From Psammoneis japonica (Eukaryota): a DNA stretch of 20,000 nt. The stretch lies in assembly GCA_008632985.1 (NCBI GenBank), contig QPGO01000273.1, positions 59,200-79,199 of the forward strand. The letters run 5' to 3'. Position numbers and translations under genes: made by a program. This document shows positions 1 to 17,820 of the stretch, one piece after another; the first letter of the stretch is position 1, and every line of letters begins with the position of its first letter. The notes below the pieces were generated by a model, which was given only the letters and a program-made list of their open reading frames with translations, was not told where the DNA came from and did no database searches.

Positions 1-348
1 CAACCTTGGGTTGAGCTGCAACCTGGGTTGAGCCTCACCGTGAGGCAGGTTGATGGGTGTCAGGGAGTGCTGTGCGAGGATTTTTCCCCTTCTTCTCTGC
101 ATGATGATGCAAGATTTCTCCATTGCTCAGCTTGTGTTGGCAATTGTTTGTGCCATTGTTGTTTCGTCATGCACCTGCTGTGCAACAGGGTTGTGGCCAA
201 TGTGCTGAACGCCGGTTTCCGGCAGTTGTCGGACTCATTCATGCGGGCGGTGCTGGTGTCCGCACGTTGAAGTTGAAGCAGGGCTACAACCTTCGCCCAT
301 GTAGAAATCTGCGCATTCGTCGTACTGGCACTTTTGAAAATTCTGCAT
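1..348 (-). pseudogene. Possible eroded gene of unknown function, divergent from the monooxygenase (5' part only in window)
   Basis: Minus-strand ATG at 348 is preceded by CAACACAAACAAC, an A/C-rich leader. The frame reads MQNFQKCQYDECADFYMGEGCSPASTSTCGHQHRPHE*VRQLPETGVQ...NTS*AMEKSCIIMQRRRGKILAQ... with two TGA stops (plus-strand 235-237 and 127-129), compatible with CGA->TGA. No homolog recognised. Confidence 0.3.
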
Positions 349-483: not shown

Positions 484-576
484 ATGATCCTTCCAGGACC
501 TTTACGTCTCCTTGCTTTGTCTGCCGCTGTGGAGGTGGCTAAGGCCGCTTCCCTTGTCGACCCATCTTCGCCATCT
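484..576 (+). CDS. 5' segment (signal peptide, 31 codons) of the DOMON/copper monooxygenase gene, cut off by the TIR element
   Basis: ATG at 484 gives MILPGPLRLLALSAAVEVAKAASLVDPSSPS, which looks like a signal peptide. Removing 577-3465 plus one ATCT copy joins it in frame to 3470 (SEPYSRWLDAF...GGMPGADI), giving a 569-aa reading frame. Confidence 0.85.
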
Positions 577-600
577 TCATCGTGGAACCCCGCAAATGCG
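577..600 (+). repeat. Left terminal inverted repeat of the TIR element
   Basis: 21 bp perfect plus 2 of the next 3 bp matching the reverse complement of 3442-3465. Confidence 0.92.
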
Positions 601-1517
601 GCAATTTTTTCACATTCGTGGCCGGTTTAAAGGAAAAGGGAAAAAAGGAGGGGATTCCGACAGTTGAACACACACACAATTTGACCATGCAACCAGGGCC
701 AGAGTTGCACTGGCTTCTTTTGGTCCAGGGTGGTTGCTGCAGGTGCAAAGAGTGGGGCACATTGCAGCTGCAGGAGGGCAACAATGTGACTCTGAGTGTG
801 TGCTGCCAAGCTGAGAAGCCCAGCTTGGTTGTGAGCCAAGCCCTGCCAGGCCTGCTGCCCTGGCTCCACAGCTGCTCCTCCCAGTGTGTGCATCAATTGT
901 TGAAGGAGCACCACATTGACTCAAAGGCTGTGTTTTGGGTGGAACAGAGAGGGAAAGAATTGTTGTCCTCTTGACTGGTGCTTGCTTCAGACCCCGCATC
1001 ATGAGCACAAGCTCCTCTTGAGAAATGAGTGAGAGACACTTCACACAGTCATTTTTGGTGCCTCTCTTTGGCTGCCCACTTGGCATTGCCAACAAACTCT
1101 TGAACCCAACCTCACTCACAATTTCTTCACCCTTCAACCACAAAAGCAGGCTCAACTTTTTGTTGGCTTTTTTGTGGCCAGGGATCACTGTTGCAGGCAC
1201 AAATGGTGGGCACATGCCATGTGGCTCTGCTTGGCAACAATGTGATGCCAAGCAAGCATGTGCCACCCACCAAGGAGCCAAGCAGCCCAGCTCAGCTTTG
1301 AATGGAGCTCCAGGACAGCAGCCAGCTCTTGGTGCTCCCAGCATGGCTTGCTTGCTCAAGCTGTGCTGCATTCACCCCACAATGCTCTGTGTTGTGGTGG
1401 CTTGTTGCAAGCCATGAGGAGTCTGCAGTTGGCCAGGGGCCCATTTTGTGAAGGCCACACATGTTGTGTGAGGGGCCAGGTGCAGAGATCTGCAACAACA
1501 GCTTGTGGCTGTTGGCA

Positions 1518-1805
1518 CCAAGTTGGCATTTGATTGGGAGTCAGTGCTGAGGGGCTGTGAAGTGGCTGTGCTGGGGTCAGGAGCCCAGCCAGCTCACACT
1601 CTCTTGTTGTCACAAATTGCTGTCACAGCTGTCTTTGCATTGCAACCAGCCAGGTGCAGTTGGTCCCAAGCTGGCACTTGATTTGGAGTGACTGCCAAGG
1701 AACTGTGAAGTGTGGGGTTGGGCAGTCCAGCCAGCTCACACTCTTTGCTGACAGCAGAAAGTGCTGTCACACCTGTCTTTGCATTGTGGTGCCAGCCAGG
1801 CACAC
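1518..1805 (+). repeat. Diverged tandem duplication (~148-bp period) inside the element
   Basis: CCAAGTTGGCATTTGATTGGGAGT...CCAGCCAGCTCACACTCT...TGCTGTCACAGCTGTCTTTGCATTG from 1518 recurs as CCAAGCTGGCACTTGATTTGGAGT...CCAGCCAGCTCACACTCT...TGCTGTCACACCTGTCTTTGCATTG from 1666. Confidence 0.85.
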
Positions 1806-2630
1806 ATGGCCAGAGCAGCCTTGGCACATCCTGCTGACAAAACTGGCAAAACAGCAGCTCTTGTGGTTGGGCCAGCATGCAGGCAGTCTGGGCACACCCC
1901 TGGGAAGTCAAACAGGAAGGAGGGCTCAGCATTGCCGCCAGTGCCAGAAACATGCTCAGCAGCTTGTCTTGAGAGAGATTCGAGCCCACACAGCCCCGAG
2001 CTGGGTGTCTTGGCTGGCAGGTTGGAAAGCATTCTTGAGCACAGTCTGGTGTGTGGGTGGCACTGTCACCAAGAGAGCTGCTCTGCAGAGGAAGAGGGAA
2101 ACAGGCAACAGCATTTTGCAAGAACTTTTTTTTTTCAATGGTTGGGTGGGATGGGGCAGCATCTGGACTTTGACGGAGCATTTGGCGGACAAAGCTTGAG
2201 CACAGAGAGCTGTCCACTCAAGCTCCACAAGTGGCACATTCCAAAGGTGACACCACACATGGGCCATTTGTTCATGCATCAACATGCATCAAGCTGCAAG
2301 TCTCACAAAAAACCACCACCAACCTTTCAACCAACCACCATGGAGGAGAGAACAGGGCAAGAGGTTCGAAACAAGAGTGATTCGTTGACTCTCTTCTTGT
2401 TTCATGCATTCAAGAGCTTCTTGTCCTTCTTGAACATTTGTTGTGCATTGTTGTCTCTTTTAATTCAAGTGCAAAGAGGAATCACTTTTCTTGTTTCTTT
2501 CTCTTGAGGGGTTGTTGGTTGTTGAGTGATGCAATTTTTGTTGTCACATTTTTGGAAATGTTGGCAAACCCGATCACTGGCTTGATTGTCAACCCATTCA
2601 CCATTTTAAGTCTCCATGGCATAAAATGCC

Positions 2631-3197
2631 ATAAGCCCAGAGCCCTCAATTGTTTCATCAAACGCAGTGCTTTGCACACGTCCAACATCAACTCGACTCA
2701 GTTGAAATCCCAATTTGTGGGCGATGAAAAATCACGAATGTCAAACAAATGGCTACTTTCGACACCAACATCCCCGAGTTCAATCCAAATGTGACGGTAT
2801 GCCTTACAGCTTATGACCATGACACATACAAGCATGCTTTATTGTTGTCATCGCGTACTCGTATTGAAAATGCCGATAGATCAAAGTTTACGAAAAGGAT
2901 GGAATACAAATTCATTTGTGTATTCATTAGTGGCATTGGAATAATGACATTAAGGGCAGAAGGGATCTAAAATCCTTATTCATCATTGACATTTCTGTAT
3001 TGCTCAGAATTTGAATTCTGACCACTGCCGTTAAGCATTTAGCTTTCTTTGTGTCGAAGTGTAAATGACACTTAACGATTTGCACTAATCATATAGCTGT
3101 CTCTGTGTCGAAGTGGAAATGACACTTAACGTTTTACACTATTCATTTAGCTTACTTTGACTCGAAGTCAAATGTCGAGTTTGGGTTATGGGCTTAT
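2631..3197. mobile_element. Candidate nested MITE (~567 bp)
   Basis: Imperfect inverted ends: ATAAGCCCAGAGCCC (2631-2645) vs the reverse complement of 3183-3197, ATAAGCCCATAACCC. A 2-bp AT or TA duplication is possible. The interior is AT-richer and non-coding with subterminal tandem repeats, and its composition differs from the flanks. Confidence 0.5.
3036..3177 (+). repeat. 54-bp tandem repeat, ~2.6 copies
   Basis: Units start at 3036, 3090 and 3144: CATTTAGCTTTCTTTGTGTCGAAGTGTAAATGACACTTAACG... / CATATAGCTGTCTCTGTGTCGAAGTGGAAATGACACTTAACG... / CATTTAGCTTACTTTGACTCGAAGTCAAATG. Confidence 0.85.
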
Positions 3198-3441
3198 CGT
3201 TATTCAGCCACGATCATGAAGTCTTTGCCGCAAATGCGCGGGGACCCTCCTGTAGAGGTCTACGCTCATTTTTGTATGTGGCATTGAAACATGTAGCCTA
3301 CATACGCAAAACTGGTACAGTTTCTACGAAAAAATTTCGAAAAAACGCCTAGTTCGCGAGATAGCTCTGGTACAAAACCTACGCAAATAGTCCCCATACA
3401 TGCACGTACAACTCTACGCATTTCCGGGTTACAGGTCCCCG

Positions 3442-3465
3442 CGTATTTGCGGGGTTCCACGATGA
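3442..3465 (-). repeat. Right terminal inverted repeat of the TIR element
   Basis: CGTATTTGCGGGGTTCCACGATGA followed by the TSD ATCT. Confidence 0.92.
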
Positions 3466-3469
3466 ATCT

Positions 3470-5086
3470 AGTGAGCCGTACTCGCGATGGCTTGATGCAT
3501 TTGGTTCAGACTACACCCATTCGACGTTTGTTGGCAACGGCAATAACGTTGCCGTCCACTGGCGAATCGAAAACGATATCCTTAACCTTGCAGCTGCGGC
3601 GGGAGCCAGCGGATGGATTGGCTTTGGCATTGCAGAGGCAGGTGGAATGCCCGGTGCTGACATCGCTGTGTATGAGGCGCTTGCTGATACGCTTGGGGAC
3701 TACCACGCCCTTACGTTCGGAAGGCCAGAGCTCGATAAATGTCAGGATGATTGGGAACTGATTAGATCAACCGCAGAGGACTCTTTCATTGCCTTTCAGG
3801 CCACCAGAGCCGCATCAACTGGCGACCCACAAGATCGGGATCTGTTTGATGATTCGGACCTGTCTCTTCCTGCCACTCCAATCATTGCAGCATGGGGAGA
3901 TGAGGATGAGCTCTCGTTCCATGGACCGAACCGGACCCGAGGATTTGCTCGATTTTATGGCCCGGAAGGTCTACAGGCGGGGGATGTTTCGAATTTGGAG
4001 GCTGAGAGCGACGGAAGCTTCATAGTCACGGCTCAAAACTTCACTATCCCCTTGGAAGAGACGACTTACCACGAGTTTTGTATCAACGCGACGGACTTCG
4101 AAAATGCACCTAATTTGACCGAAGCTGTCCACATTATTGGTGTTGATTTGGAAAGTTCCGCTGACGTGAATGGAGTTGACACTTCCAAGTATGTCCATCA
4201 CTTTGCGCTATTCGGTCGAAGCTCTACTTGCGACGATCAATTTACTATACCTGTCTTCTTCTACGGATGGGGCCCCGGCCAACCGCCATTTATCCTTCCA
4301 AGTGACGTTGGTCTTCCCCTCGGCGGCCAGAATGGCTTCCAGAGTTTGGGTCTCGAGATTCACTACGATAACGTCGACAAAGATGAAAATATTGTCGACA
4401 GCACCGGCGTCAGGTTGTACTACTCGAACGAGAAACGTGAGAACGAGGTGAATGCCATGATTGTTGGTGACACGTTTACTAGATTGAGGCCTCAGAGCGT
4501 TGGTTCGGGAAAAACCCAGCACACGTTTGACTGTCCATCCAGCTGTTCGCAGTCGAACCTACCGGGGCCCGTCACTATCTTCTCCGAGGCGATGCACACC
4601 CACGAGACTGCGACCAGGACGGTTAATCAAATAGTTCGGGATGGAGTGGTAGTACACGAGGCAGTTGTTGATTTCTGGGACTTTCGTCGAGCCGGAATCA
4701 AGCATGTTCAACAGGAACGCTACGAACTCCAGCCCGGAGATGTCTTCCGAACCACGTGCTACTACGAAAATAGCGACAACAGCACTGTGTTTGGCTTGGG
4801 TACTCAAGAAGAAATGTGTCAGGCACTTCTGTTCTACTATCCTGCCATTTCCCAATCTCACGGGTTTTGTGGCCCTGGACTAACTGAATTTCTTGGAGAT
4901 GAATTATGCGAGGCCTCGTACATGGGCACGGTGCAAGCCGAGGACGACTTTGGGCGTGCTTTTGGTTCACCGCAGGAGGAAGAGTGCTCAACCTCGCCCC
5001 CGTCTACGGCCACTAGAGGAGCTGCGTCACATGTTGCTGCTGCCTCACTGCTTCTGTCCTTCGCTGTTTTCATTTCTACCGCTTAA
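3470..5086 (+). CDS. DOMON domain + copper type II ascorbate-dependent monooxygenase (DBH/MOXD1-like), main coding segment; hydrophobic C-tail suggests a GPI or membrane anchor
   Basis: DOMON signature GWIGFGIAEAGGMPGADI. CuH-site motifs YVHHFALF and LEIHYDN, CuM-site motifs MHTH and QEEMC, plus YGWGPG and DSTGVRLYY. Ends with a Ser/Thr spacer and hydrophobic tail AAASLLLSFAVFISTA. The frame is open from 3470, 59 codons upstream of the supplied ORF start at 3647. Confidence 0.93.
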   Translation, partial: SEPYSRWLDAFGSDYTHSTFVGNGNNVAVHWRIENDILNLAAAAGASGWIGFGIAEAGGMPGADIAVYEALADTLGDYHALTFGRPELDKCQDDWELIRSTAEDSFIAFQATRAASTGDPQDRDLFDDSDLSLPATPIIAAWGDEDELSFHGPNRTRGFARFYGPEGLQAGDVSNLEAESDGSFIVTAQNFTIPLEETTYHEFCINATDFENAPNLTEAVHIIGVDLESSADVNGVDTSKYVHHFALFGRSSTCDDQFTIPVFFYGWGPGQPPFILPSDVGLPLGGQNGFQSLGLEIHYDNVDKDENIVDSTGVRLYYSNEKRENEVNAMIVGDTFTRLRPQSVGSGKTQHTFDCPSSCSQSNLPGPVTIFSEAMHTHETATRTVNQIVRDGVVVHEAVVDFWDFRRAGIKHVQQERYELQPGDVFRTTCYYENSDNSTVFGLGTQEEMCQALLFYYPAISQSHGFCGPGLTEFLGDELCEASYMGTVQAEDDFGRAFGSPQEEECSTSPPSTATRGAASHVAAASLLLSFAVFISTA

Positions 5087-5779
5087 GGATCGACGTCCGT
5101 CAGGATAGATGATGTTGATGCTTTTTTATTCTCTTCATGACATGCTCGTATTCATATCGCAAGATACAAGACCGTATTTGTGGTGTACCTCAGGAGGACG
5201 AGTGTCGCCTTCGTGTCATTTCCTTGCTCTGTGTGTGCCTGATTCTTCAAAACAAAACAAAATTGTGCGTGGGGACGCCGAATCCTCAATCCGTTGATGT
5301 GTAAAAGCAACCCTCTTTGCATGACACTACATAATAAAAAACATCGCAACAGAATAGTGCCGATTCAAAACAATGACAATGCTCGTATCTATGCTAGCTA
5401 ATGAAGGCAAAGTAGAGTAGACTCAACGCTACTCATACACAGAGAAAAATGCGAAAAAAGTCATTCACGGACAACGCACCGAGCTCGAAAACTGAACAGA
5501 ATGCCTCCACCCGCGGATTCTCCTGTGAAAGCACCAACTGTGATGATATACTATTGTGCAACGAGATAAAATCTCAGTGCTCTACATTATTTGTTAAACG
5601 CTGAAAGAAGAAAACCGATTATTGTTCTCCAGCACGACTCTCCCAACAACCCTAATGTCCCCCCCCCGGTACAACTTGGCACTCACGATGCGTCGTCCGG
5701 CAACCGACTTCTACACCAACAGAATGCTTCTCCGACCACAGCCTCGTCACTCCCCGCCCCGCCACACCGATCTTTCAAA

Positions 5780-8340
5780 CTCAAAATTGCGCCAAAGAAA
5801 GGCGTTGACGTTTGTGTGTGCCTTGCGATCCATCACCACCTTGCGAGAAATGTGACGCTTCATCTTTCAAAATCCATGCAATGCCACAGTTTTCACGTGC
5901 ACCACTGCAATCCTTGCTCATCGCCCTCCAGTCTCCACATTGCAGTCATGGCATGATTTAAAGCCACAACATCTGCACACAGTGGCTCCATTCACAGATG
6001 TCGCGCCGCATTTTGAGCGGCACAGCGGCGCAATGTCTGCACAAGGGTTCCTCACAACCTTTGCAATCAAAATTTCCCGCACACTTTCCGCAGTGGGTGG
6101 TGTGACAAAATCAACATCCTTGCAGACATTTGCCCCTGCCCTCCCAACAGAATGCCCCACCCATGCTGTTGTCTCAATCCATGGTGCAAGCGCCCCTTTG
6201 GTTTGTCCTTTGACAACTGCCGTTGGCTGTCAGCGCACAATGGTCAGCAGTGTGGCAAACACCCAGACTGTGATGATCGCAACTCTCATGAAGCAATGGG
6301 TTCTGACAAAGCTCCTCCCACACAGCATGTGATTGTGAATCATGAGGCATTGGCAACATCAAAAGATGTGCAGGTGCCCTTCTGGCTCCCCCACCTTTGC
6401 CTGAGGAGCAGCTGGTTTTGGCCAGAGTGCAAAGATGGGTGGTGTGCTGACTTTTGCAGATAAAATCAGGTTCAGTTTTGCACCCAAACCTGCAATCAAA
6501 GCAGAAGCACCACCACTTGGTCTGTTTGGGAATGACAACAATGCAGTGGATGCATTCCCGTCAAGAGGTGACAACACGCTGACAGCCTGTCCAGTGCAGC
6601 GGGCGAGCTTCATTTTGATGACGTGCCTGGAAAATGGCTTGCCAGCATTGGTGGCTCCTGATGATTCTGGAGATGATGATGATGACACACCAGGTCCTCT
6701 TGTTCCTCAAGTGGCAACAACAGCATGGACAAAATTGGTTCAAGCAATCATTGCAAGCACGAGATGCTTTCTCAATGTTTGTCAGACAGTGAATCGCATG
6801 ACTGCAACTCTGAAAATCCTGTGCTGTGCAGCAATTGTTTGAAGAGGCAGCCTGTCAGATTGCTCTTGGCAACTGCAACTCATCTTGACACACAACTTTT
6901 CCTGTTTTAAAGTCAACACATCTTTGGAGCATCCAATCAAATTCGGCATTGTCTGCATGACAAGAGTGAGCATGCAGTGGCAGGTTTCCTGGTTGCACTC
7001 CTTTGCCTGCCTTGCATGATGATGAGAGATTCAGTTGTCAGTGGTGCACACATCATTGCACATTGTTCAATGGCTTTTTGTGTCACATTGTGCGCACATC
7101 CAAAAGAAAACATTTTCCACAATCGCAAACCCCATGTCAAGAACAAAAAAAGAGCCACGACACAATGGCAAACATTGGGCCATGAGGATGCCCTGTGAAA
7201 AAGAAATCAAAGAGACAATGATGCTGCTGGAGCCACCACACTTGCGCCTGTCTGGGACATCACCGCTGTGTGATGTCTCATCCATTTGATCAACTTGTGA
7301 CAGGTTTTTCACCCAACACTGGCAAAATCTGCTTTGCATGTTGTTGTCCAATTTTTGAAATGACTGAGTCAGCAATCAACCACTGTTGCAGCACCACTCA
7401 ACTCTCCACATTTTGATTGGTGTGCTCCTTTGGTTTGTTGATGTGGAGTTAAAGAAAGGCGTTTGAAACTGCGCCAACGATGCCATGGTTGAGTTCACTT
7501 TTGCATCAAAAAGCATGTGCGGCAGCCACTCACACATCCCTTTGTTTGTCCAGACCTTCAAGATTGAACTTTGCATGCAAAATGTTTCTGACAGCAACTT
7601 TTACATTGGTTGTTTTCAAGTTGGACAATGCACAAAACATGTTGGTGTTGCGCGTGAAAAATGGGCAAACGCACACACCCAAGTCTGGTTGTCAGCAAGG
7701 CAAAAATGTCAAGGAACAATGGCTCAAGAATTTTTGTTGAATTGGTGCAGAAGGATCGCCTTGGATCTGGAAATGCTCTGCCTTGCTGGCAAAGCATGCA
7801 CAGCTGCCAAGCTTGAGACCAGCGCGACACTGCGCCCATGCCTTTGAACAATCAAGGACCCTTTTTGCAGAACAAAGTCTCTTTTGAGCTTGGCGACAAC
7901 ATTGCTTTTGTTTGACACTGTGTGTTTGCAGTGTGTCGAAGCATCTGGAAAAGGCAGGAAATGTGAGAGACCCGGGGTGGAGCCATTGAAGAGAGGACAC
8001 TTCAGCTTTTGAAAATTTGGTGGCGACACTTTGGAAAAAAGCGTGCTGCAAGTCAATTGTGAAAGGAAGGAGTTTGCACTCAACAAGTCAATCATGAAAG
8101 GGGGGGAGTCCCACAAAGTTTCCTGCACTGCGGCATGTCACACTTCTTGTCCTGGGCTGTGAGGACTGTGGTTTCCCTGCTGGAAGCCCTCAATGAATTT
8201 CAGTCTTGCAGCATGACATGTGCCTGCTGACGCCACCACACAACTCATGTGAACAGATGATTCGCTCCAAAGAGCCAGACAAAAGAAGGTTGGTGGCAGG
8301 AAAATGCTGTGCAATTTAAGAGCCCTGTTGTCATGTTGTC
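5780..8340. other. TpA-depleted (partly CpG-depleted) degenerate tract, probably decayed TE or pseudogene sequence
   Basis: Only a handful of TA dinucleotides in ~2.5 kb, mostly TTAA. ORFs essentially lack Tyr and are Cys/His/Gln-rich. A fragment LPALVAPDDSGDDDDDTP (~6640-6690) suggests former coding sequence. Boundaries are approximate and no element family was recognised. Confidence 0.6.
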
Positions 8341-8424
8341 AAATTATTTTGTAAAAAAAACGTACGACCACACCACGCACGGCACACAGCATTCAATGAT
8401 GTGCTGCACCGGGATTCCAAAGAC

Positions 8425-8430
8425 AAAAAA
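8425..8430 (-). terminator. Pol III T6 terminator after the tRNA pair
   Basis: A6 on the plus strand (T6 on minus) lies just 3' of the truncated tRNA-Asn copy. Confidence 0.55.
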
Positions 8431-8431
8431 G

Positions 8432-8504
8432 CTCTCCGTGCTGGGATCGAACCAGCGGCCTCAAGATAACTGTAGCAGTTAAACGGTTATAACAGTCTCG
8501 CGCT
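8432..8504 (-). pseudogene. 5'-truncated, intron-containing tRNA-Asn(GTT) copy
   Basis: Minus strand: AGCG CGAGA CT GTT A [22-nt intron TAACCGTTTAACTGCTACAGTT, plus-strand 8468-8489] A TCTTG AGGCC GCTGG TTCGATC CCAGC ACGGAGA G. The intron is at the canonical 37/38 position. The 5' acceptor strand and D-arm are absent. Confidence 0.8.
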
Positions 8505-8533
8505 GAAGAGATTGCAAGGTGCAAAATAGATAA

Positions 8534-8607
8534 CTCTCCGTGCAGGGATCGAACCTGCGACCTCAAGATTAACAGTCTTGCGCATCTACCAGCTGAGCTA
8601 ACGGAGA
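8534..8607 (-). tRNA. tRNA-Asn (GTT), intronless
   Basis: TCTCCGT TA GCTC AGCTGGTA GATGC G CAAGA CTGTTAA TCTTG AGGTC GCAGG TTCGATC CCTGC ACGGAGA G. It has a 7-bp acceptor stem, perfect anticodon and T stems, and A/B boxes, with one extra T in the 3' D-stem strand. Confidence 0.92.
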
Positions 8608-10565
8608 CGAATGTTTTGTTGGAGGCGGGGAGCAATTTCACCAATGTGATCACTGTTGGTGTTCCACGAAAAAGTGCCAAGTAAGTTGCACATCACACAC
8701 AGACAAACGTAAAAAAAAATCATTTTTTGATCACAACAAACGTCACACCACTCTCACTGCCTCTCGGTGTTATTTCTCATCAACCAAGCCACACCCAGAG
8801 ACATGCAGGGGCATTTTAGAAATGTCTTTGAATGCTTGACAAGGCCACAGTGCGAAAGAGATGCGTTCCAGGTCCAGGTGGGACCTCGCACTGCTGAACT
8901 GTGACATCGACAGTTTTTTGAATCGCGTCGTATGTGGCGCACGTACATTTCTACGTGATTTTGGCAAAATTTTGCATCATTGCAGTGCAATTGTCAGGCG
9001 ATCCATTCAACAACTTTTGACATTTTTTTCTTCTATGCTGGGCTGCGCGCAAAACTGTCTCACCTGCCACCTCTTGCTCCAAACCCAAAGCTGGTCAAAT
9101 CAAAAATTTGAGCACACCTTGCACACCAAAATCGACCATTTTCTTTCGATCTGTCGGTGGACCTGATGCAAAAAACGATCAGAAAGTCGATTTTTTGATG
9201 CAGAGGGTTTTCAAAAACTCAAAATAGACCCACTCTGCTCATTTTCGAGAATGGGTCCGCCGACAGTTCATTTTCTTGTTGCCCCCAGTGCAAACATGCG
9301 CAACTGTCAACCAAAAATTCCATGCATTTGGTTTTGAATGAGCACTTCCATCTTGTTCACTTTTGCCCGCAGCAACCACACTGTCTCCTGCTGACAGTGT
9401 CTCTGAATGCACGAAATGACCCCGTTGTGTGCACCCCAAATGTCACACACAAATTTGTGTGCACGTCATTTCATGTGAATGCCTGCACAAAATGCACATC
9501 CCTTCAACTTTGAACGTTTCTAGTTCACTCTAAACATCTGCCAGAGACCACAGCAAAGGCACCATTGGAAAGAGCAGATTCTCAGCTTTCCATCGATGTG
9601 CCGTTTGTTCCCCACGTGCAATTTGCGCTGGAGATGCAGTCGTGGCAGTCCAACCGGTTTTATGTCCAGCACAGCGCACGCCATTCTCGAGTGTCTTAAG
9701 AATGGCGCAGGGCAGGCACATTGTCCAAAACTTTGAGTGCGAACAGAGACATGTGCACTGCAAACTTGGCCGTTCATTTCATGTCGAAGACAAATGCATC
9801 CATCAACCAGACTGTGAACTGCAGAGCTCGCACGTAGAATTCTGCGGGGCAAATGTCACAAAAAGTCCCACCTGGGACTGGAACCCGTCAAGAGTGAATG
9901 AAGTGCGCACTGCCAATGAGAGTTGGTGAAAATTGACGAACAAAACATTGTTTTGTGTTCCTGTGAAATCGAGAAAGGTTGTTTGTTTGCACAGATTGCC
10001 TCTTTCCCCAAACGCTGCCCGGCTCTGCCGAACTGAGCTGACAGAGAGTTGACTGTTGTTGCTTGTTCAGCATTGTTTTGACATTCAGTTGCTGATTTGT
10101 TCAAGTTTGGCAACCAAGCCAAACATTTTTCCAGAAGGCAGAATTTGCGCTCGCACACAACACGCCGGCGCACATTCGCGTGAAACCTTCAGGACAACAA
10201 CTGACATGCGATTGCACACAGATTGACTTCGGACAATCATGCTGGACTTTTTGCAATTGTTGGTGCTTTCTTTGGGTGGCTGAAATGAGGTCCAGGGTCC
10301 AGGGCCACCTCTCACAGGTGTCATCTGTCTGCTCATCATCAAGGGGTCAGGGAGTGCGGCTGCTTTCTTGTTTGTTGGCGGGCACGTGGCGCGTGGCACA
10401 AAAATGGTCTTGAGACAGCTGGAGAAGCAAGTTGTGCCAGTGCTGTGTGTGAAAAAAACAAGTTGCTGCTTTGTTTTGCAATCTGCCCACCAGAGCTTTG
10501 CCCATTGCCCCCTCCCCACCAGCAGCAGCAGAGATGCGCTGCTTGCTGGAAAGCCAGTGGCCAAC

Positions 10566-10786
10566 CCGCTCTCTGACGGCAGCTGCCAGGAGCACTTTGA
10601 GCACCTGGGGAGTGACCTTGCATGTCTCTGACCCACAAATTGATGCCTGCCACACTGGTGCTTTGAAGAAAAATGACACATGGAGACTTCTGCACCTGGG
10701 AAGCCACTCTCAGATGGAAGCCTCCAGAAAAGCCCTTTGAGTGCCTGGGCAGCAATGGTGCACATCTTTGACCCACAATGTGATGG
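10566..10786 (+). pseudogene. Fossil protein-coding internal repeat (two ~46-codon-period units) of an unknown protein
   Basis: Unit 1 PLSDGS..FEHLGSDLACL*PTN*C and unit 2 PLSDGS..FECLGSNGAHL*PTM*W. Many differences are synonymous third-position changes (TCT/TCA, GAC/GAT, GGC/GGA, GGG/GGC, AGT/AGC, CTC/CTT), so this frame was under coding constraint. Unit 2 contains a frameshift. Confidence 0.7.
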
Positions 10787-12086
10787 CCGTTCTTGCACTG
10801 CTGCTTAAAAATGTTGGAAGTTGAGGTGCTGTCAAAGGCTTTTGTGTGATCTGGGTTGTCCAGGAGCCCTCCACAGGGCACTGAGTCTTGAAAGTTGCAG
10901 ACAGGAAACTCACCCAGGAGCACTCCTCCTCAGCAGGTTGATGCCCTGGGACATTGGCCTGGCCTGTTTCTTCCACCTGGACAGAGATTGTCCCACAATG
11001 AGCACACAGCTTTGGGCACTCAAAATGCATCCGCACATTTGTGGGCTGGGTGGGCTGGCACTGCACTCACCCTTGTGCTGGCAACAAAGAGACGTCACCT
11101 GGCCGCCAGTGACACAGCAGGGTGTGAATGTTGACAGTGCCCTGGCACCAGCTTCATTGCCATTTTGGTGCACAAGCCTGCACATTTGAAAAGCTCCATG
11201 TGAGTCACTGGAAAGTGCTGTGTTGCTGCAAGAGTGGCAAGAAGAAGCTGATTTCTTCTCGAGATGGCTCATGAACAAGGTGAAAAATGGACAGAAACTG
11301 CCTTCTGACAGAATTCAAACAATGTTGTGAAATTTTTGTCATCTCTTTCACGACCACACCACAATGGGTCAAGCCAAAACATGCCCAAACAAGATGCTGT
11401 GTGCAGGGCACCTCTTTGTGTTGTGCAGCTGTGTGAAAGAGGGGCACGTGCATGAAGCCACAGGCCTGGTGTTTTGTCTCTGCTCGTCTTCAGTCATCTG
11501 CAAGAAGTGCATGCTGGGATTTTGTGTGGAAGGCTTGCTCACCACAAATTGTGAAACCAACAACACTTTGAACTTTTTTTGTGAATCCAATGAAGAAATC
11601 TCAGTGGTGTGTTTTGTTTTGTGGGAATGACAGAAAAGAAAGTGCAGCAACAAGTCATGGCAGAGAGGAGCACCACCATTGCTTTGGGAATGCAGTCAGC
11701 ATTGCACATTGGGGTGAATGACAGAAATGAAGATGCAGGGGTGAGAAGTGTGTTGGGTGACACTGTGTTCATGGCAAACATGGGCAGTTTTTTTTACAAT
11801 GCCACAACACGCCAATCATCTCTCTCAGTGTTGAAACATTGACCCAACAATGGTTTTGTTCTCTTGACCTGTTGTTTTGTTTTTGGCTTTGTCCATTTTC
11901 CACAGAAATCATGCGGCATGGCTCAAAGCAGCACTGCATCATCATGTGGCATGACTCAAGGTGATGTGCCAGTTTTGTGCAGTGTGACTCAAGAGCTGGG
12001 GCTCTGCCCACCTCTGAACATTGAAGTGGCTGATGAGAGTGAGGCTCAGCTTGATGCTGCAAGGGCAGGAGAATGTGTTGGCACCA

Positions 12087-12106
12087 GCTGCTGCTGCTGC
12101 TGCTGC
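12087..12106. repeat. (GCT)n microsatellite
   Basis: GCTGCTGCTGCTGCTGCTGC seen directly. Confidence 0.8.
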
Positions 12107-14987
12107 CACTGTGACTCCTGGTGCTGGTGGTGCCGCTCCTGCTGCAACTTTCAGTTTCACTCATGTTTGCATTTGTGCTCTGGTCCATGCATGTGTTCTG
12201 GAGACCAAGTCTCTCTGAGTTCTTGTGTGTGCTGCTGTTGACATTGGCATGATCTTGATGCATCCTTTGCATGCCAACTGCACTCTTTTGGTGCAGAGCA
12301 CACAAAGAACTGGCAGTGCAACCCAGGTTTGTTGACATGATCAGATCTGTTGTTTAAGACATGCAACCCCTCCTGCAGACTGAGGGGCCATTCATCATGC
12401 TTGCTTGCAATGGTGGAGCTGGCCTTCAACCAGGCAAAACAGAGAGATGCTGTCAGAGCCAAAACACATTGTTGTTTTGCATTTGAAGCACACTTTTGTA
12501 AAACTGGAAGGCAGTGAATTGGCTGCCATCTGCCCAAGCCAACAGAGAATGGAGTTGGTCTTTTTGGTGAAAAAACAGGCGCCACCCATTTGGGTTGGGC
12601 AACATGAGCCACAGTGCAACCTGTTGAGACCATGTTGTTTGGCAAACATCTTGCACAGCTGTTGCAGCCAGGGTGGCTGCAGCTCAATCTCAAGTGCTTG
12701 GTTTTAGCTTTGATCATCAAAGTGCCATTGCAGGCAGAGCCAATGAGTGAAGTGGCACAAGCTTCATCAGAGAGGGGGCATTTGACTGGGAGGCAGGAGC
12801 GGCATTGGCAGCAGAGTGAGTTGGCACAGTCACAAGAGCAAAACAACAAGAGAGTTGGAGAGGTTGCAACTGAACTCAAGAGCAATGGCAGAGGCATGCT
12901 GGCAGTGGGAGGCTGAGTCTCAAGAATGATGATGGAAGTGGTGTTGTGCAGCAGGTCACAAGCAGCAGCCAATGCAGAGCAGTCAAGAGCCAGTGTTGCA
13001 GCTCCAATTTAGATGGCTTCAACAGCAAGAGTGGGTGCATTGGGGCAACAGGAGAGTCATGTTTCAAACACTTTAAATGAGAGCACTGAGTCAGCAACAT
13101 TCAACATGCAATTGTGTGCCTCAACCCAATGTGTGTGTTTGATTTCCAGCGCATTTGCTCACCAGGCTCAATGCCATGTCAGTCATCCCAGACCTCTTTG
13201 TGCTCTCAGACATGTCATCTTAGAAGGACCCTCACCCCTGAAGCTTCTTGTCTTCTTTGATTCAAGAGGCTCCTCATCTTCCTTGGTGTAAAAAATGGCT
13301 GTCTGTCATCACAGTCATTGTTCTTGTCAGCAGAGTTGTCGCTGACAGCGGTCTTGCCAGCCATTGGCTCACTTGAAGCTGCATCTGAGATGCTTGTTGC
13401 CAAGGAGGGAGATGGGTTGGTGTTGCTTGACAGGGCACTTGCAACATTGGCAGAAGGTGAGTCAGTGTTGGCAATGCCAGCAGAGGGCAAATCAAGAGCT
13501 CTTGTGGGTGGTGGGGATCAAAAGAAGAGCTGCTTGTTGGTGGAGCAAGCAGCTTGGTCATTTTTGAGGCTTTCACCTTCTTGTGCATGGGTCTTTCTGC
13601 TGCTGTTTTTTTGTTGTGTTGGCATCTTGGCAGCTGTCCAGAACTTGCAAGGAGAGCTGAAAAATGTGGTTGGCCACTTTTGGTGGAGAGCAAGGCCAGC
13701 GGCACTTTCTTTGGTTGGCTTCAGAGCACAAGAAGCAGACATGCTGGCAGCAGAATCATTGCTGTGATTTTTGGCAACAAGGAATCTGACTGTTGATGGA
13801 GGCTCCTTGGTGCTTGTGTGCTTCATCTCACTTTTTTCATGCCTCAGCATGTTGGCACAAAAAATTCAGCCAGGGTCAATGGGCTCCCATCATCTACAAG
13901 CTGAAAGCATCGAAACAGCATGCACAATGTCAAACACAGCAAAATCAATGAACAAATGAGAGAAAATGCAAAAAAGAAAAAAAAGAGAGAAATGCAGGAG
14001 TTGAACACAAGTTCTTGCCATGGTGTTGAGTCAGCATGACTGTTTGTCTGGACCCAATGTCTGCCCACTGTCCATCAACATTTTCATGCACAGCACTGCA
14101 AAGTTTTCTCTCACTGGTGATCGCATGGTGATTCTTGCAGGAAAAGTTGTCTCTGCAGAAGGCCATCAAAAGAAAGAAGTTCTGCTCTTTTTGGGTCAAT
14201 GTGGGCAGCTGAGAAGTGTGCTTTGATCCTGCATTTTCACCCCAACATCAAACAGACATTTTTTGAAACCTCATGTGGGGTTGAATTTTCTTGTTCTCAC
14301 TGCTGGATCTTTGTGCAGCTCAATGGTTGAGCAGGCATTTGATCATGCTGTGTGGCTCTGTGGTTCCTTGCAGATGTCCTGGCCCAGCTGCAAATGCAAA
14401 GAATCACAAACTCAAAAATCTGCAGGAACATGCCAACAACTTGGTTGACTTTGGAGTGGCACATGGCAGAGAGGACCTTTTCAAGAAAGAAAGCTCCTTG
14501 TGTAATTTCAGCAGCGTGCTGCTGCATTTCATTTGTGGCTGCCAGATCTCAACTGCCAGCATTTTTTGCACCACACATGAAGAGCAATCCCATCATTTGT
14601 TTGAGAGGGAGAAGAAGAAATAGAAAGCTGAGTTTTGAAATGAGTGCCCCCACCCTGCTTTTTCAAACTGACCAGCTCTGTAGACTTCCTTGGCAGCTGA
14701 CACCAATGTCTTCTCTCTTGACAACATTTTTGACATTGGTCTTAACTGAGTGCAGCCTTGCAGTGCTGCCCAGCCACCAAAGAGGTTGTCCTTGCCAGAA
14801 CCTGAAAGATCTGCCACATGCCTGGGATGTAGAAAATTGCAACATTTGAAGCTGTGGCTCTTGTCCATGTGCTTGTGAAGACACTTGCAAGACAAGGAAG
14901 AAGCATGATGAAGAGGCACACACGAAGCCCCGAAGTTGAAGCTGTTGAAGTGTGTTGAGGCTTGGAAAAGTGAGTGCACTCAACGAA

Positions 14988-15030
14988 TGTTGTTGCTGTT
15001 GTCGTTGTTGTTGTTTTGTTGTTGTTGTTG
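14988..15030. repeat. Imperfect (TGT/GTT)n microsatellite
   Basis: TGTTGTTGCTGTTGTCGTTGTTGTTGTTTTGTTGTTGTTGTTG seen directly. Confidence 0.8.
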
Positions 15031-15409
15031 CATTTGGGCTTGGACAAGGGCTTTCTTGAGCTCTTCTGTGTTGCCAAAAAATGAATGCAAAGAAATGGTG
15101 GCTTGCAGAGTGCTGTGTCAAGAACATCATGTGAGGCACTGTCCAATCCATCCATGGCACTCCAATGGTGGGCAATTGGAGGTTCATGGGCAGGAGGTGC
15201 CAGGAGACTTTCTGTGTGCATGAACATCACAACAATTGCTCATTGATGGCAAGGCACATCACACTGATGATCAAAAATGCATTGAGGAGGAGGCAGCTGT
15301 GATTTCAATGATGCCTTTCATGATGTGGATTGTGGAAGGATCCAGCCTCAATTTCCCATGTTCTCAAAGTCATCCATTCACTGTCAGTCACGCTGTGCTC
15401 TCCAAAATG

Positions 15410-15424
15410 CCCCCCCCCCCCCCC
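15410..15424. repeat. C15 homopolymer
   Basis: 15 consecutive C near the right edge of the degenerate tract. Confidence 0.85.
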
Positions 15425-15966
15425 TTGCTCTTTGTGATGAAGATTCTGTCAAACTTTTGCATCAGCAAATGTACCCAAAATGCAACCAATTGGACCCTCG
15501 TTCCTGTCTCAAACAAATTTGCTGTGGTTTGTCCTGTCTTTGGTGGGTTCCTGAAAGTGATGACAAGGACGACAATGGAACCTGGTTCATAGATTTGCCT
15601 TTGGAACGGATGGATGAAGACGTGATTTCTGACTGAGGAATAAGAATGGAGCAATGCTTTCGAACTTAGCTCCTCACAACGGCCTTGTCGTTAAGGAAAC
15701 TATTTGCAGTGCCCTGAAAGCAACTCGTAAGAATTGGCGCCTCCACAGTGAAAAGAGGATGTCAATCTCTCTCTAACACTTGAATGCGAAAAGCGCAGTT
15801 GCAAAACAATTCGATTCAACTGCAAATGATTGTGAGAGGTTGTACGATCTTGATTCTACTATAGTTTGACTTTGACAATTGACCTGTAAAACAAATTTTA
15901 CTCTCTAGAGAGCGAGCTATTCAGTGCGGTAGAAATAGCATGTGCTCGCACAATGCGCTCCGCTAT

Positions 15967-17484
15967 TTATTTCCGATTGTTGTACTTTTTCTTTTTGAAC
16001 TTTCCACCTCGTTGATTCGGCAACGCACCACCTCGGCCACCGGATCCTCCGGCATAGCCTCGCTTGATTTCTCGTTTGACTGCACTTTCCAATCCATCTT
16101 CATCATCGCTCTGTCGTCTCTTTTTGTGACGACGTCCACCACTCCCCTTGGAGGCTGCCAATTGTTCCTTGAGTTCACGAGTCGCCAGCCGTTGCGCCTC
16201 ACAAACGCGTTCCAGCAAAATCAACACGGTTTCTTCATCCAGCTCGTACTCGGGTAGCTTTTTCCCCAACAATCCCTCCAAACGCTGGTACACTTCCACA
16301 TCGTATTGAGTCACCATGGCAATGGCCTTTCCAGCTCGTCCCGCTCGAGCCGTCCGTCCGACTCGATGGATATAATCCTTACCGTGTCCTGGTAAATCAA
16401 AATTGATTACAACATCGACGCTGGGGATATCCAATCCTCTCGCCGCCACGTCGGTACAAATCAAGATATCCCGTCCTCCGCTTTTGAACTTGTGCAAGGC
16501 ACCCAACCGCTTGGGTTGACTCATTTGACCGTGCAAACAAATGGCGGGGAATCCCAAATTTCGAAGCATCAGGGCGAGTCGCTGCACGTTATTGCATGTC
16601 TCGCCAAAGACGAGAATCGATTGTCCGGCGTGTTCATTAATGAGATAGGTCAAGTAACAATCCTTGTATTTGGAAGGACACAAAATGTACGATTGAATCA
16701 GTTTGGAAGGAGTGGAGAATTTGGTGCTGACTTCAATCTTGACTGGATCGACAAGCGACGCTCGTTGTAACTTTTGTACCTTGGAAGTCATGGTGGCACT
16801 AAACAACATGGTCCGACGTCCCTGGGACGCATCGGGAATAACGTTTAGGATTTCATTCAATTCTTCTTCAAAGTCCAATCCAAGCATGCGATCGGCTTCA
16901 TCCATGACGAGGTAACGAATCTTTTGCAAATGAAATCCCTTTGTGTTGGTCAAGTGATCGACGAGCCGCCCCGGCGTGGCAACGACAATGTGAGGATTCC
17001 GTGCCAATGCAATGGATTGGCTGGCCGAATCGACACCACCCACAATACAAACCGACGTGGCACCCATGCTCTGCCCCAATGCTTGAACGACCTCGAGAAT
17101 CTGAAAGGCTAATTCACGCGTCGGGGTTAGAATGACTGCAAAGACGGCGCCCCGCACGGGATTTTGCAACAATTCTTGTAGAATGGGAATGCAAAAGGCA
17201 CCTGTCTTTCCCGATCCCGTCTCGGCCAATCCAATAATGTCTCTGCCCTGTAATGCGTGAGGGAGTGTTTCTTGTTGAATTTTGGAACAGTACTTCCAAC
17301 CCGCAAGCGACGTTGCTTCACAAAGAGTTTCACAAACTCCCACCGAAGCAAAGGTTGCTTTTGACATGATTCCATCTTCTTCTTCATCATCATCCGAAGA
17401 TGATGACGATGACGCTGCTTGTTCTTCTTCTTCATCCGAAGATGATGGCGACGCTTGTTCGTTCTCGTCTTGCTTCTTGGACAT
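15967..17484 (-). CDS. RRP3: ATP-dependent rRNA DEAD-box helicase RRP3/DDX47, 505 aa, intronless
   Basis: GRDIIGLAETGSGKTGAF, LTPTRELAFQI, ATPGRLVDHLTNTKGF, DEADRML, SAT, HGQMSQPKRLGAL, TDVAARGLDIP and YIHRVGRTARAGRAG motifs, typical of the DDX47/Rrp3 subfamily. Acidic N-terminus and basic C-terminus. Start chosen at ATG 17484 (MSKKQDE). Confidence 0.95.
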   Translation of the reverse strand: MSKKQDENEQASPSSSDEEEEQAASSSSSSDDDEEEDGIMSKATFASVGVCETLCEATSLAGWKYCSKIQQETLPHALQGRDIIGLAETGSGKTGAFCIPILQELLQNPVRGAVFAVILTPTRELAFQILEVVQALGQSMGATSVCIVGGVDSASQSIALARNPHIVVATPGRLVDHLTNTKGFHLQKIRYLVMDEADRMLGLDFEEELNEILNVIPDASQGRRTMLFSATMTSKVQKLQRASLVDPVKIEVSTKFSTPSKLIQSYILCPSKYKDCYLTYLINEHAGQSILVFGETCNNVQRLALMLRNLGFPAICLHGQMSQPKRLGALHKFKSGGRDILICTDVAARGLDIPSVDVVINFDLPGHGKDYIHRVGRTARAGRAGKAIAMVTQYDVEVYQRLEGLLGKKLPEYELDEETVLILLERVCEAQRLATRELKEQLAASKGSGGRRHKKRRQSDDEDGLESAVKREIKRGYAGGSGGRGGALPNQRGGKFKKKKYNNRK

Positions 17485-17820
17485 GGTTTCAATCGAACAA
17501 GAACAAAAAAAAGTGAGCAGGAAATCAAAATGTGGGATGAAAAATCGGTGGCGCAAGCGCGAAGCGGGAAATGTGTGAACACAAAGTTCCTGATTCCATC
17601 AAACTGTTTCCGTGCGTCAGTCGGTCGTTCCCTCCCGTCGTCTGACAGCACGCTCGCCCAAACGAAGAACGAAAGTTTTTTCTGAGACTGTGGCCATGGC
17701 GGTCGGAACGCCGTCGCTTAAATCCCTGTCTGCTCTCGCGTTCTTATAAAGTGCCTGGTGTACAGTGTAACAAGAGACAGCACAGTGGAGCAAGACACAA
17801 GCCGTGCTGTGAAGGATTGC
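17485..17820. promoter_or_regulatory. Short divergent (bidirectional) promoter region between RRP3 and the pseudouridine synthase
   Basis: 336 bp separate the head-to-head start codons; a CTTATAAA TATA-like motif lies at ~17743-17750. Confidence 0.5.

Follow-up and report, generated by a model that had tools for sequence, protein, structure and literature searches.

Features of the locus

The subject of this analysis is a stretch of 20,000 bases from Psammoneis japonica (assembly GCA_008632985.1, contig QPGO01000273.1, positions 59,200 to 79,199 of the forward strand), which is called the window in the following and in which the dinucleotide TA (TpA) has almost disappeared from long non-genic tracts, with ordinary TA in the adjoining genes. 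The window carries a gene for a copper type II monooxygenase with a DOMON domain, interrupted by a predicted intron made of nested transposons, a tRNA-Asn gene, a high-copy small transposon of the miniature inverted-repeat transposable element (MITE) kind, a DEAD-box helicase gene and a pseudouridine synthase gene. Positions and dinucleotide counts are collected in Table 1, where o/e stands for the observed/expected ratio of a dinucleotide.

Table 1. Features, TA-poor tracts, counted intervals and tract borders of the window
Feature	Position	Strand	Remarks
TA-free tract	1..284	.	TA 0, CG 11, TG 41, CA 21; single-copy depth; continues past the left window end
Border	284/285		ahead of promoter and exon 1
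Copper type II monooxygenase/DOMON, exon 1	484..581	+	signal-peptide end; 2 TA in 98 bases (normal)
MITE-1 left inverted repeat, 25 bases	576..600	.	partner 3442-3466, inverted, 24/25 match
Predicted GT...AG intron, nested transposons	582..3471	+	2,890 bases; GT 582-583, AG 3470-3471; frame kept
Nested transposon, 2,627 bases	601..3227	.	11-base direct duplication 590-600 / 3228-3238
TA/CG-free block, left 2 kb of nested transposon	629..2606	.	601-2606: TA 2, CG 12, TG 223, CA 235
Counted interval	630-2460		TA 0; CG 9 (o/e 0.07); TG o/e 1.71; CA o/e 2.04
Border	~2461-2606		inside nested transposon copy
Right 0.6 kb of nested transposon	2607..3221	.	ordinary, TA 36, CG 22
Copper monooxygenase, exon 2	3472..5086	+	over 3470-5086: TA 54 (o/e 0.58), CG 108 (o/e 0.99)
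Border	5712/5713		~630 bases beyond monooxygenase stop codon
TA-poor tract B	5713..8316	.	5 TA in 2,604 bases; single-copy depth; no coding remnant
CG subdivision	5713-6100		TA o/e 0.04; CG o/e 0.86
CG subdivision	6101-8316		CG o/e 0.29
Counted interval	5780-8340		TA 6 (o/e 0.03); CG 52 (o/e 0.36); TG o/e 1.89; CA o/e 1.78
Borders	8316/8317 and 8952/8953		flank tRNA gene; 8953 falls within MITE-2
Normal TA/CG island around tRNA gene	8317..8952	.	splits the TA-poor DNA
Counted interval, tRNA island	8341-8719		TA 15 (o/e 0.57); CG 20 (o/e 1.01)
tRNA-Asn (GTT) gene	8534..8607	-	58.8 bits
MITE-2, high-copy small transposon	8800..9980 (ends approximate)	.	long and short forms; TA-poor border 8953 inside
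TA-poor tract C	8953..15640	.	24 TA in 6,688 bases; depth mostly single-copy
Counted interval	8720-15600		TA 29 (o/e 0.06); CG 96 (o/e 0.24); TG o/e 1.75; CA o/e 1.82
CG subdivision	8953-10500		TA o/e 0.07; CG o/e 0.63
CG subdivision	10501-15640		TA o/e 0.05; CG o/e 0.11
Border	~15590-15640		~330 bases from helicase stop codon
DEAD-box helicase gene, DDX47/RRP3 type	15967..17556	-	TA, CG normal
Pseudouridine synthase gene	17758..19425	+	TA, CG normal
Counted interval, genes	15967-19425		TA 84 (o/e 0.37); CG 221 (o/e 1.09)

Regional loss of TA and CG

The window holds 325 TA and 663 CG in total. Consecutive TA lie at 628 and 2461, enclosing a gap of 1,833 bases free of TA, and consecutive CG lie at 995 and 1936 with the stretch between them free of CG; these exact positions bear out a first-pass annotation of the same DNA, which had read TA as absent between about 630 and 2460 and both TA and CG as absent between 997 and 1935. 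That annotation had equally described TA as nearly absent, and TG and CA as enriched, at about 5780-8340 and 8720-15600, while finding ordinary TA and CG in the adjoining genes and the tRNA island. Counts and o/e values agree with this description except for the start of the third tract, which has to be placed near 8953 rather than 8720, as 8771-8952 holds five TA, and an additional TA-free stretch at 1-284 had been missed. With 5 TA, the segment 285-628, where the copper monooxygenase gene has its promoter and exon 1, is undepleted.

The refined TA-poor tracts (1-284, 629-2606, 5713-8316 and 8953-15640) sum to 11,554 bases and contain 36 TA, while the TA rate outside them in the window would give approximately 417 (Poisson log10 P about -128). 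The three blocks in their first delimitation gave 153, 175 and 451 TA after mononucleotide shuffling (500 rounds) and have 7, 5 and 24 in the actual DNA. The share erased within the tracts amounts to 93% for TA and 35-90% for CG, with TG and CA nearly doubled. This composition is continuous, as all 13 consecutive 500-base bins between 9001 and 15500 show a TA o/e of 0.00-0.15 together with TG and CA o/e values of 1.46-2.31, and the bins at 1001-2500 and 6001-8000 are equally poor in TA and high in TG and CA. Among 25 metagenome loci with relatives of the monooxygenase, a single sliding 500-base window combined a TA o/e below 0.2 with TG/CA above 1.4; as these loci are short, mostly genic and of 26-40% protein identity, they provide a control value only. 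The two product dinucleotides are not always balanced between the strands, with 41 TG versus 21 CA at 1-284, 80 TG versus 46 CA at 11953-12452 and 797 TG versus 695 CA in tract C as a whole.

At the borders of the tracts, TA density changes over about 150-250 bases, and the borders leave out the genes, one promoter with its first exon and the tRNA gene. The CG-poor zone is nested within the TA-poor zone, is smaller and its depletion is less complete. That CG is kept at 5713-6100 and 8953-10500 despite the loss of TA indicates that two processes are at work, and in the younger-looking segment 8953-10500 the loss of TA outruns that of CG, as expected from the 1000-fold elevated rate of TpA mutation discussed below. 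The CG part of the signature fits ordinary decay of methylated CpG, whereas the TA part needs a cause of its own; as the depletion of TA exceeds that of CG in both strength and extent, CpG decay can be a component only and is ruled out as the sole cause. Within the normal island, about 100 bases beside the tRNA-Asn gene, a 36-base fragment (8432-8467) matches the 3' part of this minus-strand gene, at its low-coordinate end (8534-8569), with 92% identity.

The first-pass annotation had assumed a process acting on repeats, which is not borne out for most of the affected DNA. Summed contig depth at 5337-8671 and 10006-15400 is 60-72, the same as for the genes, so that most of the TA-poor DNA is single-copy at a likeness of at least 85%. 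However, each ancestral TA or CG can contribute up to roughly one mismatch between copies through scrubbing itself, so that old repeats could hide below this 85% threshold. Between the tracts, no long repeat was detected by seed search, by blastn with word size 9 or by exact 30-mers of the purine/pyrimidine pattern. Equally, no Pfam family exceeded the cut-off in 105 stop-to-stop frames of at least 70 amino acids or when the three initially drawn blocks were read through in all six frames, and minus frame 1 of tract B had no match among 1.84 billion representative proteins. Weak Pfam matches to TMEM71, the SUZ12 zinc domain, Myc_target_1 and PKD_channel (17-21 bits) all remained below cut-off and were rejected. 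A run of unclassified library type ("DNA?"), termed X2, delivered contigs over the genes and none over the single-copy tracts, a lack of cover that, in view of the library, counts neither for nor against transcriptional silence; no RNA data set is listed as containing the stretch.

Conversion into TG and CA and its sequence context

Of all dinucleotide steps, the pyrimidine-purine share is 0.242 in the tracts as compared to 0.244 in the other DNA, while TG plus CA account for 0.92 of such steps in the tracts and for 0.61 outside. As transitions keep the purine/pyrimidine pattern, the unchanged share of these steps makes the loss look like transitions into TG and CA. In fact, in silico conversion of 92% of TA and 65% of CG in normal DNA of the window raised the correlation of its word spectrum with that of the tracts from 0.62-0.70 to 0.91-0.95 (3-mers, 0.66 to 0.93; 4-mers, 0.62 to 0.91). 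The residue of this model recurs in all four tracts, with ApT about 25% low, GpC about 33% high, AG/CT raised and GA/TC lowered.

The surviving TA are not a random sample. TTAA accounts for 10 of the 36 survivors, as compared to 16 of 284 TA elsewhere (odds ratio 6.4, P 1.4e-4), and survival by the 3' neighbour, taken over both strands, rises from T (0.03) through C (0.06) and G (0.10) to A (0.17).

Mobile elements and the direction of change

The mobile elements allow a comparison between copies. The ends of MITE-1 differ at a single step, as the left inverted repeat, beside the TA-free block, reads TG where the right one reads TA. Inserted into MITE-1 is the nested transposon, whose ends resemble each other weakly in inverted orientation (an equal score is reached by 3.4% of shuffles) and which is multi-copy, with the region from about 600 to 3440 at 70-110 times the summed depth of the flanks. 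The uninterrupted form can be recognized in another MITE-1 copy, where a loose contig end joins the left repeat straight to 3228. One diverged copy of the nested transposon has CA at 1430-1431, where the window has TG. In the TA-normal part of the nested transposon, a 54-base unit is repeated in tandem 2.5 to 3 times (3032-3193).

MITE-2 is the more abundant element, with a summed depth 380-850 times that of the flanks in the region of about 8700-10000. Short forms join 9027-9038 to 9679-9699, many contigs skip about 9035-9690, and the interior at 9244-9544 has single-copy depth. At 9101, 9121 and 9124 the other copies, at all or most of the depth, carry TA, and the copy of the window CA, TG and CA, respectively; the family thus has three TA in 89 bases versus none in the window. 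Equally, at 9158 CG in the other copies corresponds to TG in the window. At 9090-9091, the family reads AT and the window GC. A 24-base stretch of MITE-2 had no match in metagenome contigs and none in viral contigs.

A further comparison is provided by X1, a run from the single public study with this stretch, of unrecorded library type and possibly the source of the assembly itself, which was compared through de Bruijn contigs of the raw reads, one of them covering 1-628; details of differences are given for 40 of 282 rows. Among the differences listed, three fall into single-copy DNA of the TA-poor blocks as first drawn, a TA-to-TG difference at 504 and CG-to-CA differences at 6008 and 6030, with TA or CG in the window and TG or CA in the contigs of X1, whereby 504 lies in the undepleted segment 285-628, just beyond the refined tracts. 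These three differences could be allelic or have arisen from culture to culture, and they are of exactly both inferred kinds.

Interpretation

The tracts can be interpreted as the saturated footprint which a TpA-specific A:T-to-G:C hypermutation, together with CpG decay, has left in a diatom, an interpretation to which a probability of roughly 0.65 is given. At 5'-TA-3' on either strand, A:T would be changed to G:C, giving TG or CA; the targets would be non-genic, partly transposon-derived diatom DNA, on which a slower ordinary CpG decay to TG/CA, as after cytosine methylation, would be overlaid. Judged from an experiment in Bigelowiella natans, the loss would be an active and locally targeted hypermutation. 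In mutation-accumulation lines of this species, as the text of the preprint reports, 231 of 302 new nuclear point mutations occurred in two integrated viral regions, and 230 of these 231 were A-to-G/T-to-C changes, without exception at TpA, at a rate of about 6e-7 per site per generation or approximately 1000-fold over background (Mettrop et al., bioRxiv 10.64898/2026.01.13.699255). The proposal of the first-pass annotation that a second process beyond CpG decay turns TpA into TpG or CpA therefore matches a process measured in another organism, while its statement that no such genome-defence pathway had been described has been overtaken by this 2026 preprint.

By analogy, the agent may be a DNA adenine deaminase, possibly ADAT2/TadA-like, which would produce hypoxanthine that pairs with C, an assignment that is plausible but given somewhat less than even odds. 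Chromatin state or small RNAs would draw the agent to foreign or silent DNA, TA before T or C would be changed most readily and TTAA least, and scrubbed DNA would be able to travel, as the TA-free block resides in a still multi-copy transposon within a predicted intron.

Several observations weigh against hypermutation at this locus. After application of the conversion model, ApT is 0.051 versus 0.067-0.069 predicted and GpC 0.077 versus 0.058; a wider A:T-to-G:C pressure may act in the tracts. The order of 3' neighbours was tested on the words that conversion would produce, with a weak outcome (pooled odds ratio 1.16, P 0.08), and no strand-coordinated runs of TG or CA were seen (runs test z -0.7 to -1.5). 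Among the fixed differences listed for MITE-2, all five are A/T in the family and G/C in the window, with two at TpA. At the 263 places that differ from X1, the kinds of change are balanced (104 A>G plus T>C versus 86 G>A plus C>T), the repeat copies of the window are not clearly more converted than their relatives, and as about half of random transitions in DNA so rich in TG and CA touch a TA- or CG-forming step anyway, the 40 listed rows give no test of enrichment. The polarised evidence is a handful of sites, with loss in place seen only in MITE-2, in one inverted-repeat pair and in one X1 difference. Furthermore, neither a viral nor a transposase remnant turned up in the tracts by six-frame Pfam search and by comparison of one frame of tract B with proteins, which leaves a foreign origin of the single-copy part unproven.

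Counter-evidence also comes from the nested transposon. Among the differences listed, none of 13 high-depth differences to other copies of 601-2606 would create TA, so that the family was already TA-free before spreading and was not mutated in place here; the block is inherited TA-free DNA carried in a transposon. Natively TA-free elements, named by the first-pass annotation as an outcome that would refute its own proposal, are thus what was encountered in this block. Extended to all tracts, this becomes the alternative that survives best, and which is nevertheless considered unlikely, namely that old mobile or captured DNA was free of TA and CG on arrival, either scrubbed at another place long before or selected for escape from recognition by the host, with nothing acting on the locus today. 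Apart from the TA-free family consensus and the balanced kinds of change, it agrees with the end of the TA-free block at about 2461-2606 within one transposon copy, the remainder of which (2607-3221) has 36 TA, and with its position in a predicted intron of an apparently intact gene. However, an inherited composition still requires some process that first made the DNA TA-free, and it leaves unexplained the loss of TA at 9101, 9121 and 9124 relative to the MITE-2 family, the TG/TA difference between the inverted repeats and the TA-to-TG difference at 504. Equally, it gives no account of single-copy tracts that stop at genes and at the tRNA island, and selection over 11.5 kb without coding remnants is hard to motivate.

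If hypermutation in place is preferred, the base attacked has to be considered. TA is self-complementary, therefore T-to-C on one strand equals A-to-G on the other and the signature cannot separate an adenine-directed from a thymine-directed agent. In the latter case, the T of TpA would be modified, for example through oxidation to 5-hydroxymethyluracil by a TET/JBP-type enzyme, and would mispair or be repaired to C. In dinoflagellates, 5-hydroxymethyluracil favours TpA. Every context rule maps onto the opposite strand, and the lack of strand coordination is equally compatible with such chemistry, which is nonetheless rated as somewhat less probable again than an inherited composition; the window itself gives no sign of base modification. 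The authors of the B. natans study favour adenine deamination, themselves without a direct test according to the text of the preprint (Mettrop et al.).

That base modification merely causes the base-caller or polisher to read TA and CG as TG or CA is very improbable. The tracts are regional, as modification would be, and the unrecorded library type of X1 together with its possible identity with the source of the assembly leaves this explanation some room. However, X1 contigs at a depth of 59-71 span up to 5.3 kb of the tracts with hardly any differing letter (two at 3440-8790, one at 9963-12075 and none at 12144-15423), and such long, deep and near-identical contigs need accurate reads that agree with each other, which makes an artefact unlikely. 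Moreover, adjoining TA and CG read normally, the 36 surviving TA are biased in context rather than random, and the signature in B. natans derives, as far as its text describes, from Illumina resequencing of lines that differ from each other (Mettrop et al.).

Hardly credible, finally, is ADAR-like A-to-I hyper-editing of double-stranded retroelement transcripts fixed by reverse transcription before integration, since, although ADAR-type enzymes prefer U ahead of the edited A (cited in the text of Mettrop et al.), six frames of all tracts contain no reverse transcriptase, integrase or long terminal repeat, the inverted ends and the 11-base duplication of the repeats are features of DNA transposons, the border at 8953 falls within an element, strand-coordinated clusters are missing (z -0.7 to -1.5) and the change in B. 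natans arises in place in DNA.

Gene models and the intron

The monooxygenase gene consists of two exons rather than a single frame, with the short exon 1 located 2.9 kb upstream. The predicted product of both exons has 570 amino acids and aligns with its homologues over almost all of their length. As the predicted intron consists entirely of the MITE and the nested transposon, it was apparently created by transposon insertion into coding sequence. Named relatives of the protein are found in diatoms (36-41% identity) and brown algae (32-34%). The relatives of the helicase with an organism label are topped by diatoms at 70-76% identity (Fragilaria, Fragilariopsis, Cylindrotheca, Nitzschia, Seminavis, Thalassiosira and Skeletonema); the match list is headed by an odd long insect entry, and the best match without organism label reaches 82%. 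Homologue searches with the helicase and the monooxygenase found no near-identical protein. Both genes assign the stretch to a diatom and not to B. natans.

Significance

TpA-specific hypermutation of a chromosome has been reported once so far, in a 2026 preprint and, according to its text, for one chlorarachniophyte (Mettrop et al.). In a literature search, erasure of TpA did not turn up for diatoms or any other stramenopiles, a look-up of terms in the available text of a 2025 preprint on diatom transposons returned nothing on it, and literature on introners in diatoms provided nothing relevant. If the same scar in a diatom is correctly read, the process is no quirk of one species and can remove a dinucleotide over many kilobases, side by side with cytosine methylation. 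The scar is here far more complete than in B. natans and adjoins ordinary genes. As diatoms are an ecologically dominant group that includes some genetically tractable species, knock-outs could be used to search for the enzyme and for the way in which it is targeted, and a DNA adenine editor of natural origin would have practical value. Scrubbed repeats also are a warning for annotators, because copies may come to differ by as much as roughly one base for each TA or CG of the ancestor, so that such repeats pass for single-copy DNA and nothing of their protein similarity is left.

A wider and more speculative conjecture can be put forward. Diatoms, like the rhizarian B. natans, might run a TpA-directed DNA hypermutation defence that is old or recurrent in SAR (stramenopiles, alveolates and Rhizaria) and that is saturated alongside the decay of methylated CpG, and some transposons might have become TA- and CG-free "stealth" elements which are substrate to neither process, still multiply and even serve as introns of working genes.

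Comparison with known systems

Decay of CpG after methylation explains the CG-to-TG/CA part of the signature (CG o/e 0.07-0.36 in the tracts); it cannot remove TA. Fungal repeat-induced point mutation (RIP) resembles the process inferred here in that hypermutation is regional, proceeds by transitions only, affects non-genic or mobile DNA and can be recognized afterwards by a dinucleotide scar. The established features of RIP, also given in the text of Mettrop et al., are C-to-T changes, for the most part at CpA, that create TpA, and a requirement for duplicated sequence; here, in contrast, TpA is destroyed and CA enriched, and most affected DNA has single-copy depth. With the loss of TA, the enrichment of CA, the single-copy depth and a diatom host, RIP is ruled out.

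Host enzymes that edit invading nucleic acid into non-function are known with APOBEC3 and ADAR, and ADAR prefers U before A, as cited in the same text. On the other hand, APOBEC3 converts C to U on DNA, giving G-to-A/C-to-T, and ADAR acts on double-stranded RNA, whereas chromosomal DNA is affected here on both strands, without strand-coordinated runs or retroelement structure. Closer in chemistry are TadA/ADAT2 and the TadA-derived adenine base editors, which deaminate A after T or U; amphioxus ADAT2 is reported to edit A and C in DNA and Trypanosoma ADAT2 to deaminate C in DNA (both cited in the text of Mettrop et al.). These enzymes have no established natural role in genome defence, and the preference for a pyrimidine after TA, which rests here on 36 survivors, is weak in the product words (P 0.08).

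The closest parallel is B. natans. According to the text of the preprint, the dinucleotide signature is identical, with regional loss of TpA, gain of TpG and CpA and clusters of several kb; 124 such TpA-poor, CpA- and TpG-rich clusters occur genome-wide, mostly unannotated and enriched in unannotated and transposon-like sequence, and an adenine deaminase, with an ADAT2-like enzyme as candidate, is proposed there as well (Mettrop et al.). The text does not contain the terms CpG, TTAA, diatom or stramenopile, whereby its supplementary tables may list contexts that bear on TTAA. A polarised change restricted to TpA is represented in the window by the three family-TA sites of MITE-2, the one inverted-repeat pair and position 504, with three of the five MITE-2 fixed differences listed lying outside TpA. 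As to foreign DNA, two transposon families are involved, and the single-copy tracts yielded one sub-threshold Pfam match of 17 bits. The rate has been measured in B. natans, whereas the present locus shows footprints, and the target there was integrated virus, while no viral genes were found here by six-frame Pfam search. The two hosts are a chlorarachniophyte, hence a rhizarian, and a diatom, hence a stramenopile; the giant-virus insert of B. natans has a Rho of 0.45 in the text of the preprint, whereas TA loss here is near saturation with an o/e of 0.03-0.07, a measure which may differ slightly from Rho; and CG is co-depleted here. New in the present locus are therefore the lineage, the completeness of the erasure, its coupling with the loss of CG, the context of the survivors and the presence of scrubbed DNA in an intronic mobile element.

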